A stretch of DNA of 64,000 nt from Chthonomonadales bacterium (lineage in GTDB: Bacteria; Armatimonadota; Chthonomonadetes; Chthonomonadales; CAJBBX01): NCBI GenBank assembly GCA_037443035.1, contig JBBIPC010000014.1:15415-79414 (forward strand), read 5' to 3'. Below are positions 44,581 to 55,178 of this stretch, piece by piece. The notes below the pieces were generated by a model. It searched no databases and had not been told where the DNA came from. It saw only the letters and a list, made by a program, of their open reading frames with translations. The position numbers were made by a program, and so were the translations under genes. Position 1 is the stretch's first letter. The number at the start of each line of letters is the position of its first letter.

Positions 44581-45288
44581 TCAGCAGAGCAATGCCGATA
44601 GGCGCCGTCTGAGTTCGTCGCGCACCTGTCGGAATGCAGCCAGGCGCTCCTCGGCAGAACCGTTCACTGCTGCTGGGTCCGGCAAGTCCCAATGCAAGCG
44701 AACGGCGTTCCCGAGGAAGACCGGACACTCCTCCTCTCCGCAGAGGGTGATGACCGCATCCACCTCTTCTGCAGGTACTTCGCTCACAGCCTTGGAGCGA
44801 TGGTGGGAGATGTCGATACCGGTCTCGGAAAGCACATGGACAGCTTCCGGACGGACGCTCGTAGGTTTGGAACCTGCCGACCAGACGCTGACATGGTCCG
44901 GCGCGAGTGCCCTGGCGATGCCCTCCGCCATCTGACTGCGGGCTGAGTTGGCCACGCAAAGGAACAGGATGCCGTGCGGTTCCAGCGCCCGGAGCACTGC
45001 GGCCTCCACGAGCCATTCCGGCGGGACGCCTGCGCCGCCTTCGTAGGTACGGCAGCACAGCGCTCCTGTGTCGGTGCTTCGCCCTTCGACGTCCCGACCG
45101 TTCACACGCACGGACGGGGAGCCGAGGAAACCCAGGCGTGCAGCGTCTTCCTCGGTCTCGACTTTCACGCATTCCACGACTGCTCCAGGTGCCAGGCGTT
45201 CTACCACACGCTGCGCGAGCTCCAGGGTGGGTTCGGCGTTGGGACAGCCGCCGAAACCCAGGACCTCTACGCGGATGGATCGATTCAC
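44581..45288 (-). CDS. arsC: Fusion: N-terminal thioredoxin-like domain + thioredoxin-dependent arsenate reductase (LMW-PTPase fold)
   Basis: GTG start overlaps the acr3 stop; N-term [24 protein letters not shown]-term [29 protein letters not shown]. Confidence 0.85.
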
Positions 45289-46388
45289 GATGTCTCCTCC
45301 CGGGCAGGCACAAAGTATCTGGCACGGAGTCGCAGGGACACATTCACCAGGCTGATGAGGACCGGCACCTCGACCAAAGGACCGATGACTGCTGCGAATG
45401 CCGCTCCGGAGCTGATCCCGAACACAGCAACGGCTACCGCAATCGCCAGTTCGAAGTTGTTGCTGGCGGCAGTGAAAGACAATGTGGCAGTCTTGGGGTA
45501 ATCGGCGCCGAGCTTGCTGCCTATGTAGAACGACACGAGGAACATGACCACGAAGTAGACGAGCAGCGGGATGGCGACCCGCACCACATCGAGAGGTAAC
45601 TGCACAATGTACTCGCCTTTCAGCGCGAACATGACGACGATGGTGAACAGGAGTGCAATGAGAGTGATGGGACCGATCCGCGGGATGAAGATCTTTTCGT
45701 ACGAGTCGCGCCCCTTCGTACGCAACCCCACCCACCGCGTCAGCATACCCGCGATGAAGGGTATTCCGAGGTATATGAAGACGCTCTCGGCGATCGCTCC
45801 GATGGTGATCTTGGAGAGATCCACATTGCCGAAGCTGAAGCCGAGCAGTGGCGGGAACACCTTCACGAAAAGATAGGCATACACCGAGTAGAAGAGAACC
45901 TGAAACACGGAGTTGAGAGCAACCAATCCGGCCGCGTATTCCGTATCTCCTCGCGCAAGCTCGTTCCAGACGATGACCATCGCAATGCAGCGCGCCAGAC
46001 CGATCATGATCAGACCGATCGCGTATTCCGGCTTGTCATGAAGGAAGAGCAAGGAGAGCAGGAACATGAGGATCGGGCCGACCACCCAGTTCTGTATCAG
46101 AGACAGCGCCAGGACCTTAGTGTTCCGCAACACCTCCGGCAATTCCTCGTACTTCACCTTGGCAAGAGGCGGGTACATCATGAGGATAAGGCCGATGGCA
46201 ATGGGTATGGAGGTCGTGCCGACCGATAGGTTGGTGATAGTCTTCACCACGCCCGGGGCTAGATAGCCCAGACCCACTCCGAAGGCCATTCCCAAGAATA
46301 TCCAGAGGGTCAGGTAGCGGTCGAGAAAGGACAGGTGGCGGACTACAGGTTCGTCCTGCATGGTCCGAGCTATGGCTTCGTCATTCAT
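45285..46388 (-). CDS. acr3: Acr3 arsenite efflux transporter
   Basis: [50 protein letters not shown]. Confidence 0.96.
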
Positions 46389-46415
46389 GATCCCTTTGCT
46401 CTAGCAAGGTTGTCC

Positions 46416-46445
46416 TGCGACGAGCCGGCGTGCCGACTCGTCGCA
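46416..46445 (-). terminator. Strong intercistronic hairpin between arsM and acr3
   Basis: Minus strand TGCGACGAGTCGG-CACG-CCGGCTCGTCGCA, 13-bp stem with one G-U pair; no U-tract. Confidence 0.5.
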
Positions 46446-47327
46446 CTAACAGCAAGACGCCCGCCGCACTCGACGTGCTGGTTTTCTTGCACGTATGAAG
46501 GCGCTGACGAGCGCGCCGTCTAGCGTGTTCAGGTCGTTGACCGACAGCGCGCTCCAGGCTTCGCCCAGCGATGCTCGCATATCCTCGAGTGTGTACGCAC
46601 GCGTCGGCGTCACGGTTACGTCCACGAACCCGGCCTGAGCGAGACCCACGCGCACCTCGTCCTCCAATAACGCACCTGCGATGCAGCCTGCCCACAGATC
46701 TGCGTCGCGTCGCAGATCTTCCGGTACAGGCCTGCGCCATACGATGTCGGACACGGCCAGACGACCGCCCGGCTTCAGCACGCGGTATGCTTCGCGAAAG
46801 ACCCTCGGCTTATCGGCTGATAGGTTGATGACGCAGTTCGACAGGATCACGTCAATGCTGCGGTCCGGGAGGGGGATATGCTCCATCGTTCCTTTGAGGA
46901 AACAGGCGTTCTGGATTCCAGCCTTCGCGCGATTCCGCTCGGCAAGCTCCAGCATCTCGTCCGTCATGTCCACGCCATAGGCCATGCCATCAGGTGCGAT
47001 GCGCTGTGCAGCCAGCAGGACATCCACTCCACCGCCGCTGCCCAGGTCCAGAACGATCTCTCCAGGCTTCAACTCAGCCAGAGCTGTGGGATTGCCGCAG
47101 CCTAGGGAAGCTAAGAGAGCTTCCTCAGGAAGGTTACGGGCCTCCTGGGACGAGTAAAGCCCGCCGGTGATGGGGTCCGATGTCGAAGACGATCCGCAGC
47201 AAGCATCGGTGCCTCCGCTGCAACACGAAGCCTTCGCACGGCTTTCCAGGACTAGCCGCGCTGCTTGTCCGTAACGTTCCCGGACGACCTTCTGAATGTC
47301 CAACGTGCTGTTGTCGTCTTGTATCAT
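46446..47327 (-). CDS. arsM: Arsenite S-adenosylmethionine methyltransferase
   Basis: VRERYG, SCC..CC, SLGCGNP, LDLGSGGG.D, SNCVINL, WAGCIAGAL, C-terminal CC. Confidence 0.95.
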   Translation of the reverse strand: MIQDDNSTLDIQKVVRERYGQAARLVLESRAKASCCSGGTDACCGSSSTSDPITGGLYSSQEARNLPEEALLASLGCGNPTALAELKPGEIVLDLGSGGGVDVLLAAQRIAPDGMAYGVDMTDEMLELAERNRAKAGIQNACFLKGTMEHIPLPDRSIDVILSNCVINLSADKPRVFREAYRVLKPGGRLAVSDIVWRRPVPEDLRRDADLWAGCIAGALLEDEVRVGLAQAGFVDVTVTPTRAYTLEDMRASLGEAWSALSVNDLNTLDGALVSAFIRARKPARRVRRASCC

Positions 47328-47331
47328 AGGA

Positions 47332-53346: not shown

Positions 53347-53407
53347 CGGCTCTCCTTGCCTCCTTTTTGTTCTGCATTCATAGCGAGTGATGTTGCTGCA
53401 CCAACGC

Positions 53408-54721
53408 TCACCCGCGCATGGTGCCAAAGATCATGCCAGTGATCGTGGCCATGACCACAACGAGCGAAACGTACACGAGCGTCTTCTTGACTCCCATCAT
53501 GCGACTCAGGACGAGCATACTGGGGAGGGACAAGGCCGGACCTGCCAACAGCAAAGCCAGCGCGGGTCCCTTGCCCATGCCGGACCCCAGAAGTCCCTGA
53601 AGGATAGGCACCTCGGTCAGGGTTGCGAAGTACATGAAGGCCCCAGCGATGGACGCGAAGAAATTGGCTCCGAGCGAGTTGCCACCCACGGCGGCGTGCA
53701 CCCACTCTGAGGGAATGAGCCCTTCGTGACCAGGGCGACCCAGCAGGAGACCTGCCACTATGACCCCTCCGAGCAGGAGTGGCATCACCTGTTTGGCGAA
53801 GCCCCAGCTCTGGTTCAGCCATTCTCCGCCTTCTCCCTCATCGCCTCTGAGAACCCAGGAGAGACCCACAATGCCTGCTGCGAAGGGCACCATGGGCATC
53901 CCACGAAACAGGATCGCCAGAACGGCCACAGCCACAGTCACGCCCGAAACCTTCAGCGCTGGAAGCTCGATCCAATAGACTAGGATGGCCGCGAGTAACG
54001 CGGCGAACGCCGCCGTAATCAGCCACTTCACCTGGTACACGGCGTACCAGAAGCCCGTCGTACCTTCCGGTGAACTCCAGTTGGCGAAGACCAAGATGCC
54101 GATCATTGCGGCGAAGAAGAGAGCGTTCTGATGGAGCGGCCTCCGCACCTCCACGTCGGGCAGCAGCTCCTGTGCCTCCTCCTTGGCCTTCTCCTCGTTC
54201 CGGAAGAACAAGTGCATCAGAAGACCCACAGTGACGGAGAAAAGCACTGCGCCCAGTGCCCGAGCCGCGCCAAGTTCGAAACCGAGTATCCGTCCGGTCA
54301 TGATGATGGCCAGGACGTTGATCGCAGGTCCGGAGTACAGGAACGCAGTAGCAGGTCCAAGACCTGCTCCCATCTGGTAGATGCCTCCGAAAAGAGGCAG
54401 AACAGTACAGGAGCAGACTGCCAGGATGGTTCCCGATACCGAGGCAACGCCGTAGGCAAGAACCTTCGGAGCGTTGGCCCCAAGGTACTTCATGACCGAT
54501 GCTTGACTCACGAAGACGGCGATGGCGCCGGCTATGAAGAACGCGGGCACGAGGCAGAGCAGTACGTGCTCTTGTGCGTACCAGCGAACGAGGTAGAGCG
54601 ACTCCCAGATGGCGTTCCTTAGACGGGACCAGGATTGTAGTTGCTCTACTGGCAAGTAGAAGAACACGAGGAAGGCTATGATGAGAAGCGCAGCCTTGCG
54701 CCATTCGTCACGCCAGTTCAT
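53408..54721 (-). CDS. ArsP/DUF318-type permease
   Basis: EHVLLCLVPAFFIAGAI, LAVCSCTVLPLF, FLYSGPAIN, MYFATLTEVP, GPALSLP. Confidence 0.9.
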   Translation of the reverse strand: MNWRDEWRKAALLIIAFLVFFYLPVEQLQSWSRLRNAIWESLYLVRWYAQEHVLLCLVPAFFIAGAIAVFVSQASVMKYLGANAPKVLAYGVASVSGTILAVCSCTVLPLFGGIYQMGAGLGPATAFLYSGPAINVLAIIMTGRILGFELGAARALGAVLFSVTVGLLMHLFFRNEEKAKEEAQELLPDVEVRRPLHQNALFFAAMIGILVFANWSSPEGTTGFWYAVYQVKWLITAAFAALLAAILVYWIELPALKVSGVTVAVAVLAILFRGMPMVPFAAGIVGLSWVLRGDEGEGGEWLNQSWGFAKQVMPLLLGGVIVAGLLLGRPGHEGLIPSEWVHAAVGGNSLGANFFASIAGAFMYFATLTEVPILQGLLGSGMGKGPALALLLAGPALSLPSMLVLSRMMGVKKTLVYVSLVVVMATITGMIFGTMRG

Positions 54722-54796
54722 GTCCGGCCCTCCGACCGGACGGGTGGTGCGTCAATGAAGCGTTTGGAACGCATCGGTAACTCCAATAGTGGTTAT

Positions 54797-54812
54797 TTGG
54801 TCTATCAGCCAA
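54797..54812. promoter_or_regulatory. Putative ArsR operator upstream of the permease
   Basis: TTGG-TCTATCAG-CCAA palindrome in an AT-rich intergenic stretch; similar site at 55188-55203. Confidence 0.55.
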
Positions 54813-54848
54813 CTATGCCCCAGTAGACACTTTTCCGGTTCCCTGACT

Positions 54849-55178
54849 TCAGTCAGCTTCCTTTGATAAGACGTGGAATGCGCTGTACCGATCCGCCAGA
54901 ACCGCCTCGACACAATCGAAGAAGCGGAGGATACAGGGAACGCGCAAGGAATAGAAGACCTGTTGACCCACCTTGCGGTCCCGAACGATGCCTGCATTCT
55001 TCATCAAGCTAAGATGCTTGGACACGGTGGACATGTCCGACCCGACGATCCGCTGCAGATCGCAGACGCAGCGTTCGCCTCTCGAGAGAGCATCCATGAT
55101 CATGAGGCGGCTGGGATGCGCCATCGCCTTGATGACCTGCGCCTTGGCCCTGTATAGCTCTTCATCGTGCGCGTTCAT
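54849..55178 (-). CDS. ArsR/SmtB transcriptional repressor
   Basis: KAMAHPSRL.I, ERCVCDL, STVSKHL..MKNAGIV..RK.G..VFY, PC...FFDC. Confidence 0.93.
   Translation of the reverse strand: MNAHDEELYRAKAQVIKAMAHPSRLMIMDALSRGERCVCDLQRIVGSDMSTVSKHLSLMKNAGIVRDRKVGQQVFYSLRVPCILRFFDCVEAVLADRYSAFHVLSKEAD

Follow-up and report, generated by a model that had tools for sequence, protein, structure and literature searches.

We analysed a 64,000-nucleotide stretch of DNA (the window) from a Chthonomonadales bacterium (GenBank assembly GCA_037443035.1, contig JBBIPC010000014.1, positions 15,415 to 79,414). The source genome is 3.76 Mb in 61 contigs and 100% complete; the window is part of contig C14. Its positions 55178 to 44581 are filled by 14 open reading frames (ORFs), all on the minus strand, and the outer coordinates are ORF ends. 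On balance, we read this region as two tandem, co-oriented units, each controlled by an ArsR regulator: unit 1 (55178–47884) and unit 2 (47796–44581). In the same reading, which we favour by a modest degree, unit 1 is a local copy of a widespread, uncharacterised envelope module that is associated with arsenic resistance (ars) genes, and its cytochrome, which resembles octahaem tetrathionate reductase (OTR), acts on arsenic or arsenic–sulfur species. The linkage of this cytochrome family to arsenic genes is real. The copy of the module in the window, as assembled, is probably inactivated.

A first-pass annotation had listed 14 co-oriented genes as a two-ArsR island. All 14 were present, and every family name given to them was confirmed by Pfam or NCBIfam. 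The GC content across the region was even (0.58–0.63), meaning that an island signature in base composition was absent. Terminator-like sites occurred at chance level across the region (6 found, 6.8 expected).

Linkage of the cytochrome family to arsenic genes

The cytochrome was found in 5 of 40 relatives. The gene order was ArsR–permease–MTH895–(DGC–DUF6951–thioredoxin A–thioredoxin B–CcdA)–cytochrome in all five; two of them had the whole block in brackets, one had part of it and two had none of it. A comparison of gene order with genome G001 of the same genus gave no information, since its flanking genes were 55–58% identical and split between two contigs. Within the phylum, the cytochrome family occurred in 17 of 401 genomes and in 11 of 207 genera. 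In five of ten further phylum loci (L037, L038, L040, L042 and L043), acr3/arsC/arsM genes were directly adjacent. A distant locus (L017, 33% identity) carried ArsR–permease–MTH895–DGC–thioredoxin–thioredoxin–CcdA–cytochrome, with an ArsC of the low-molecular-weight protein tyrosine phosphatase (LMW-PTP) type 3 kb further on.

The family is large (269 cluster representatives at E ≤1e-30). For the metagenome scan, the best 80 of 430 relatives were kept; a narrower alignment was used, as the 41-sequence one was too diverse. In total, 96 loci were screened by tblastn with the window proteins and bit thresholds. Relay genes were found at 37 or more of these loci, ars genes at 19 or more and either of the two at 40 or more. 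These are minimum counts, since tblastn misses divergent genes of the DsbD_2 type, for example.

A tree of the cytochromes was calculated with FastTree from 92 rows (91 loci and the window; 87 different sequences), with five short rows left out, and it comprised four clades. Genes for ArsR, permease, thioredoxin, DGC or CcdA and/or acr3/arsC/arsM were counted as neighbours. Clade I (35 loci) had neighbours at 23 loci and ars genes at 13, and clade II, which includes the window, had neighbours at 16 of its 21 loci and ars genes at five. When only loci with a flank of at least 8 kb were considered, the neighbours were present at 13 of 17 loci in clade I and 11 of 13 in clade II. Clade III (29 loci) and clade IV (6 loci) had neither neighbours nor ars genes, and this included their 13 and three loci with at least 8 kb of flank. 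For clades I and II together, neighbours were found at 39 of 56 loci (24 of 30 with the longer flank) and ars genes at 18 of 56, as against 0 of 35 (0 of 16) for clades III and IV. The GC content of the linked loci ranged from 0.33 to 0.71, so they do not belong to one lineage. In locus L045, the genes were interleaved in one co-oriented run, ArsR–ArsP_1–(thioredoxin, DUF6951)–cytochrome–ArsM–ArsC–Acr3–thioredoxin–CcdA. The first-pass annotation had proposed recurrent linkage of both the cytochrome and the SagB-type flavoprotein (a nitroreductase) to such genes as a check. The cytochrome was linked in this way, but the nitroreductase mostly did not lie beside it.

The neighbours of 13 loci were annotated with Pfam. 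A Porin_O_P-like gene was located 3′ of the cytochrome in L053 (6590–7630) according to Pfam and, according to sequence likeness, in L035, L037 and L038, as well as 5′ of it in L041. In L121, Pfam identified an Alginate_exp-type barrel gene before the cytochrome. Outer-membrane porins beside the cytochrome suggest that an anionic substrate or product crosses the outer membrane. Radical-SAM/SPASM genes adjoined clade I cytochromes (L107:13228–14475 and L121:12634–13977). According to ORF listings, the stretch between CcdA/ArsR and the cytochrome in L035, L036, L038 and L043 contained a recurrent protein of ~250–300 amino acids (aa), two membrane proteins of ~155–180 aa, a Cys-rich protein of ~124 aa, and small 4Fe-4S-like and AhpD-like proteins.

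The two clades lacking the linkage had other surroundings. Clade III cytochromes (L056, L059) lay near TauE sulfite-exporter and DsrE genes, and clade IV cytochromes (L089, L090) near genes for ApbE, a GFO/IDH/MocA oxidoreductase and an FMN reductase. These contexts hint at other substrates for the same fold.

The cytochrome and two defects in the window copy

The fold was assessed with an AlphaFold model of an intact, 70%-identical ortholog, not of the window sequence (predicted local distance difference test, pLDDT, 70.6). Of the solved chains, only 1sp3_A, the OTR of Shewanella oneidensis, matched the model over its full length (Z 9.9, root-mean-square deviation 5.2, 333 of 436 residues, 20% identity), while the next chain reached a Z of 2.4. 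Foldseek also placed 1sp3 first for this model, though weakly (E 6e-3). Profile searches of all PDB sequences gave no sequence match to 1sp3, even with E values up to 10. A 5-sequence profile retrieved nothing meaningful from the PDB sequences, that is, no solved relative of the cytochrome, and a broader profile aligned only weakly and locally with NrfA, near two of the haem motifs (E 1e-5, 27 bits). The Atlas search yielded generic multihaem clusters only. As modelled, the cytochrome is OTR-like in fold, and we do not assign it to the OTR family. Because of this predicted fold, we regard it as a candidate for a catalytic haem enzyme and not for a simple carrier.

In addition to the predicted fold, the orthologs share with OTR a secreted polypeptide with eight CxxCH motifs; the window sequence has eight only if an internal stop codon is read through. 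The protein differs from OTR in being ~140 residues longer and in its gene context of ars and thiol-relay genes. The active haem of OTR is lysine-ligated. In the 41-sequence alignment, seven haem motifs were conserved and six His residues outside the motifs were invariant; one haem would thus lack a conserved distal His, as in a catalytic site. NrfA, MccA and OTR-type proteins are multihaem catalytic enzymes for lone-pair oxyanions. No CxxCK or copper-site motif was evident in the cytochrome, and no NrfH/NrfCD-type partner was found nearby.

Eight CxxCH motifs in one ORF were found in 18 of 19 full-length clade II proteins. Many relatives lack the second haem motif; in clade I, seven CxxCH were counted in 15 of the 33 full-length proteins. 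No Cys outside the CxxCH motifs occurs in the window cytochrome. Elsewhere, the genome has 11 ORFs with at least four CxxCH (on C3, C30, C14 outside the window, C7, C5 and C38), and among these, three further ORFs have eight motifs and another has nine. Chthonomonas is aerobic and saccharolytic, and such multihaem richness is unexpected in a relative.

The octahaem cytochrome had been annotated as one open gene, which does not hold for the window as assembled. The reading frame (50382–48625) is split by a single in-frame TAA at codon 399 (49186–49188), without a frameshift. The ORF before it (49189–50382) has 398 codons and encodes the signal peptide and seven CxxCH. The continuation in the same frame (48625–49185) has 186 codons and encodes a beta-rich part with the eighth CxxCH. 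The orthologs are single ORFs of 537–641 aa. At the position of the TAA, a Tyr codon (TAC or TAT) was present in 11 of the 11 orthologs examined, and among 17 matched places in the 401 phylum genomes, a stop occurred in the window only. We also considered recoding of the TAA and rejected it, since this is a lone case with no stop at the other 16 matched places. The part after the TAA is 67–75% identical to the orthologs and as conserved as the part before it, so any inactivation is recent.

The second defect concerns the thiol relay. The first-pass annotation had reported two CIPC thioredoxins, and both are present with this motif, but the second is truncated and lacks the signal peptide of its orthologs. 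Thioredoxin A (51941–52372; Thioredoxin/Thioredoxin_2) is membrane-anchored, with a hydrophobic N-terminal segment in its translation. Thioredoxin B (51112–51858; Thioredoxin, 53 bits) has an extra N-terminal domain. Compared with the orthologs in L007, L008 and L017, all of which have a signal peptide, it starts ~60–85 residues further into the protein. The original start has left a remnant of 12 codons (~51907–51945), which overlaps the stop of thioredoxin A.

The TAA may be an assembly or sequencing error, with the cytochrome gene intact in the organism; we give this a substantial chance, though we lean against it. A single-base change within a Tyr codon suffices to produce the TAA, the depth was only ~2.4 in the sole sequencing run carrying these letters, and the conserved downstream codons have remained in frame. 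On the other hand, an independently built contig from this run (X1) has identical letters at the TAA, although the run is probably the source sample itself. Moreover, the lost leader of thioredoxin B is a second, independent lesion in the operon, so two or more errors would be required, and erosion of the module is also seen in locus L008 of a related genome. Real decay becomes more likely in view of this second lesion. The copy in the window is probably inactive because it combines the TAA in the cytochrome gene with a leaderless thioredoxin B.

The module in L008 (G017:C110, ~7600–10850) looked eroded in several genes. The CcdA matches were split over two frames, thioredoxin B lacked the stretch bearing its CxxC, the fourth haem motif read CLLCY, and the nitroreductase ortholog was on another contig.

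The other genes of the region

Unit 1 begins with ArsR1 (54849–55178), a repressor of the ArsR/SmtB type (HTH_5, 53 bits; NF033788, 89 bits with a cut-off of 55). It carries the sequence ERCVCDL. Of 16 aligned orthologs, 14 retained the CVC and all 16 the two C-terminal Cys residues (PC...FFxC). We take CVC in the alpha-3 helix of the helix-turn-helix domain to be typical of As(III)-sensing ArsR proteins of the R773 type. The next-best specific NCBIfam match was the sulfite sensor BigR (51 bits, far below the cut-off of 155). The permease (53408–54721, 437 aa) is of the ArsP_1/DUF318 type (PF03773, 224 bits) and has a vicinal CSC. It shares the Pfam family and a vicinal Cys pair with the methylarsenite efflux permease ArsP of Campylobacter, and this likeness is at family level only. 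Its best NCBIfam matches were the Cu/Zn-efflux family SO_0444 and SaoE (~98 bits, far below the cut-offs). The permease is ~66% identical to those of L037, L048 and L053 and only ~30% identical to those of the five nearest relatives (348–388 aa). It is thus of another ArsP_1 subtype than theirs, and the operon is a mosaic.

Upstream of ArsR1, a secreted TlpA/ResA-like redoxin gene (55383–55916, plus strand; Redoxin/AhpC-TSA) is oriented divergently and is possibly a member of the island. It is followed after 14 nucleotides (nt) by an SDH_alpha-family gene (55931–57247, plus strand, 438 aa; PF03313, 141 bits; no NCBIfam match). The SDH_alpha family includes L-cysteine desulfidases. The pair was not beside the cluster in the five nearest relatives. 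TlpA-like genes lay within the cluster in L042, L043, L051 and L117, and not beside the cluster in the five nearest relatives. A sulfide source adjoining the arsenic island would fit sulfur-linked arsenic handling.

These genes bear on an alternative that we consider unlikely, namely that unit 1 responds to sulfur or thiol stress and not to arsenic. The OTR-like enzyme would then reduce tetrathionate, polysulfide or thiosulfate, the ArsR-type regulator would sense reactive sulfur like BigR or SqrR, and the adjacency to ars genes would reflect shared islands of thiol chemistry. In a softer version, As(III) is precipitated by sulfide that the module forms locally. Consistent with this are tetrathionate reductase as the closest fold, the TauE and DsrE genes near clade III relatives, BigR as the next-best match of ArsR1, the cysteine-desulfidase-like gene after the divergent TlpA-like gene and the five nearest relatives, which have the module without ars genes. 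However, acr3/arsC/arsM are adjacent at 18 loci of clades I and II and at none of clades III and IV, and they are interleaved with the module in L045. ArsR1 also retains the CVC presumably located in alpha-3, and the permease belongs to ArsP_1.

The small thioredoxin of the MTH895/ArsE family (53113–53346; CAKC) matched TIGR00412 with 112 bits (cut-off 62) and starts with GTG at 53346 after an AAGGAGG-like site. The Cys-containing DGC-domain protein (52723–53100; PF08859, 102 bits) has no leader and is presumably cytoplasmic, as are the MTH895 thioredoxin and the DUF6951 protein, likewise without leaders. In the DGC protein, residues C16, C70 and C74 were invariant in 11 homologs. The model of this protein (pLDDT 88.7) was a generic flavodoxin-like sandwich with no specific match. 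An assignment as an ArsC-like triple-cysteine reductase was not supported: the best Z was 8.2, 169 chains reached a Z of at least 5, and the ArsC of pI258 was at rank 32 (Z 6.0). A plasmid search with the DGC protein returned 'zinc-binding protein' labels only. The Cys-rich DUF6951 protein (52369–52710; PF22263, 92 bits) recurs beside the cytochrome in L024, L040, L041, L042, L045 and L117, and a paralog on contig C35 of the same genome has an unrelated context. No solved sequence relatives were found for DGC or DUF6951.

The membrane thiol-electron conduit (50407–51105) is a divergent CcdA/DsbD_TM protein (PF02683, 40 bits with a cut-off of 27). The first-pass annotation had stated that permease/MTH895/DGC/CcdA clusters have little functional characterisation. 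This needs a qualifier, as NCBIfam names the families MTH895/ArsE and the CcdA-like ArsG. The names ArsE and ArsG reportedly stem from the ArsEFG system of Shewanella putrefaciens 200, said to have been described by Chen, Zhang and Rosen in 2019; this system is said to have no cytochrome. The window shares with ArsEFG an MTH895/ArsE thioredoxin (TIGR00412 is a broad subfamily, not an equivalog), a CcdA-like protein and the ars context. Unlike ArsG, the CcdA of the window scored only 42.9 bits with the ArsG model NF040495 (cut-off 200) and is not a member, and no ArsF model matched any window protein.

Elsewhere in the genome, there are two PF01578 cytochrome-assembly genes (contig C1) and a strong DsbD_TM match (161 bits, C5). 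ResB was not found in the genome. The CcdA–ResBC arrangement of System II is thus absent: there is no ResB, and the PF01578 genes are far from the window. CcdA itself is recognised by PF02683. Since separate Ccm genes and the strong DsbD_TM are available, the weakly scoring CcdA is an extra, dedicated copy. The DsbD_TM conduit and the membrane-anchored CxPC thioredoxins resemble CcdA/DsbD–ResA/TlpA/CcmG thioreduction, whereas the set in the window is in an ArsR-headed operon beside ars genes, with the Ccm and DsbD genes located separately. As the cytochrome has no non-haem Cys, the target of the reductant would be the apo-cytochrome, other periplasmic dithiols or a small molecule.

It may be asked whether the relay reaches a substrate at all. 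CcdA and the thioredoxins could do no more than mature the apo-cytochrome with its 16 Cys, and MTH895, DGC and DUF6951 could only service the Cys of the permease. We regard this as unlikely; it has much in common with the preferred reading, and the two exclude each other only in part. CcdA was found beside the cytochrome in 17 of the 96 loci and a CxPC thioredoxin in 16, the mature cytochrome has no free Cys, and CcdA with ResA/TlpA-type reductants is the textbook route of cytochrome c thioreduction. However, Ccm genes and a canonical DsbD_TM are already available in the genome, CcdA and the thioredoxins are absent from the minimal operons L009 and L010, and in L045, the thioredoxin and CcdA genes come after acr3 and not after the cytochrome. 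As L009 and L010 show, the cytochrome can do without the relay.

The last gene of unit 1 encodes a nitroreductase-fold protein with a SagB-type domain and a hydrophobic N-terminal leader (47884–48561; PF00881, 115 bits; TIGR03605, 82.8 with a cut-off of 78.4), starting with ATG at 48561 after AAGGAGG. The nearest solved relatives are the uncharacterised 3hoi and 8cqs. No azoline-peptide partner genes were seen near it among the window ORFs. The first-pass annotation had proposed this flavoprotein as a terminal enzyme, and the distribution of the gene speaks against an integral role. Homologs were present in 57 of 401 phylum genomes, but apart from the window, the cytochrome adjoined the gene at only 3 of the 29 other loci (G005, G018 and G023). 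In G021, the cytochrome was 4 kb away; in G017, it was on another contig; and three genomes of genus g15 had the nitroreductase without the cytochrome. Outside its own family, the pair was found only in L044, a 77%-identical relative. The exported nitroreductase is therefore a lineage-specific addition and not a core part.

The same counts weigh on the chain of the first-pass annotation, or an ArsEFG-like variant of it, in which exported organoarsenicals such as methyl- or nitroaromatic arsenicals would be processed outside the cytoplasm by the cytochrome and the nitroreductase as terminal enzymes. ArsM and an ArsP_1 permease occur within the island, the MTH895 protein falls into the 'MTH895/ArsE' family, the nitroreductase follows the cytochrome after a gap of 15–63 nt, and the two are adjacent in the window, G005, G018 and G023. 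Given the rarity of this pairing, the low ArsG score of CcdA and a nitroreductase leader that is not like that of the twin-arginine translocation (Tat) pathway, we consider this reading very unlikely. How a folded flavoprotein could be exported with such a leader is also hard to explain.

Unit 2 (arsR2–arsM–acr3–arsC) is an ordinary ars detoxification operon with its own promoter-like site (47803–47832). The site reads TTGACA-18-CATAAT with TG and has 11 of 12 matches; its position just before the second ArsR gene fits the designation as a two-ArsR island. Only 6 nt separate the −10 element from the ATG of ArsR2, and this spacing suggests that the four genes have a leaderless transcript of their own. 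Across the region, promoter-like sites were about as frequent as expected by chance (3 found, 2.7 expected), so the case for a promoter of unit 2 depends on the quality and position of this one site. ArsR2 (47332–47796) is ArsR-like; it contains two CC pairs, and its helix-turn-helix region carries an insertion (HTH_20, 37 bits; NF033788, 45.6, below the cut-off of 55). It is followed by the arsenite methyltransferase ArsM (46446–47327; NF008823, 340 bits with a cut-off of 263; ATG at 47327 after AGGAGG) and the arsenite efflux permease Acr3 (45285–46388; TIGR00832, 453 bits with a cut-off of 283). The last gene (44581–45288; GTG at 45288 after GGAGGAG) encodes an ArsC of the LMW-PTP type with a fused DF/thioredoxin-like domain. 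The ArsC part matched PF01451/LMWPc (75 bits) and remained below the cut-off of TIGR02691 (119 with a cut-off of 174). Its N-terminal domain passed the 'DF family (seleno)protein' model NF049942 (80 bits with a cut-off of 70), and Cys occupies the CP position. A search of the genome with the queries used here yielded no further acr3, arsM or LMW-PTP arsC. Unit 2 agrees with canonical arsR–arsM–acr3–arsC operons in its gene set and in the ArsM and Acr3 scores above the NCBIfam cut-offs, and it differs from them in the N-terminal domain of ArsC and in the insertion and CC pairs of ArsR2.

Proposed pathway and its meaning

For the inducer, the substrate, the direction of the reaction and the target of the relay in unit 1, we infer the following scheme. 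Trivalent arsenic or antimony would release ArsR1 and induce the operon. The permease would then move a thiol-reactive arsenical from the cytoplasm outward, and the periplasmic cytochrome would carry out a redox conversion of As(III) or of an arsenic–sulfur species. A reductive or sulfur-linked, immobilising step is preferred over oxidation, because the relatives in this enzyme class act on lone-pair oxyanions and because the operon exports reductant. CcdA and the thioredoxins would export cytoplasmic reducing power, so that periplasmic dithiols stay reduced despite arsenite. These dithiols would include the 16 haem-binding Cys of the apo-cytochrome.

Several results weigh against this scheme. 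In none of the five nearest relatives were ars genes adjacent. In clades I and II, 17 of 56 loci had no neighbour; most of these are short contigs, but L103/L105, L120 and L099 (ArsR only) have long flanks. The loci are also partly non-independent, with five pairs of identical cytochromes. The OTR likeness is based on an ortholog model of medium confidence, with no sequence match to 1sp3, and the neighbours of clade III point to sulfur chemistry as the background of the family. Without Cys outside the CxxCH motifs, the mature cytochrome offers no obvious target for a thioredoxin, and L009 and L010 lack DGC in addition to CcdA and both thioredoxins. Among 82 neighbour ORFs of seven clade I/II loci annotated with Pfam, no quinol dehydrogenase or dedicated electron donor was found. 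The lack of a donor gene and the minimal operons weaken the idea of a strict chain.

The first-pass annotation had regarded the upstream operon as a trans-envelope redox chain acting on exported (organo)arsenic or another metalloid or sulfur oxyanion. The linkage of the cytochrome to ars genes agrees with this, but the missing ars genes in the five closest relatives and the defects of the cytochrome and thioredoxin genes do not. A working chain in this genome is doubtful because the cytochrome is interrupted and one relay thioredoxin is truncated. As the copy in the window is probably defective, intact orthologs are preferable for tests.

We know of no counterpart of unit 1 among characterised ars operons. 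No description of a permease/MTH895/DGC/CcdA/octahaem cytochrome module was found in the literature, with supplements not opened. To our knowledge, the characterised arsenic redox enzymes are molybdoenzymes (Arr, Aio and Arx) or thiol reductases (ArsC). A bolder version, which we consider quite unlikely, is that the cytochromes of clades I and II are molybdenum-independent, haem-based periplasmic arsenic oxidoreductases for arsenite, arsenate or thioarsenic, lie within ars operons of many phyla and that together with the relay and an anion porin, they form an envelope arsenic pathway. Arsenate-dependent growth without ArrAB has been documented (PMC4432346, PMC9751042). If the bolder version were true, a haem oxidoreductase might explain how organisms without ArrAB reduce or respire arsenate.

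If the proposed scheme holds, a secreted multihaem enzyme with a catalytic role that accompanies ars genes in two deep clades, on contigs with a GC content of 0.33–0.71, would be a new player in arsenic cycling in anoxic, often sulfidic habitats. The module would then be a candidate answer to the question of what the widespread permease/MTH895/DGC/CcdA genes do in ars islands and to the question of how some Arr-less bacteria reduce arsenate. Clades I and II on the one side and clades III and IV on the other offer a clean experimental contrast within one protein family. Across many unrelated lineages of bacteria, genes for an OTR-like cytochrome and a thiol electron relay recur next to arsenic genes; this hints at a part of arsenic handling that has not been studied so far.

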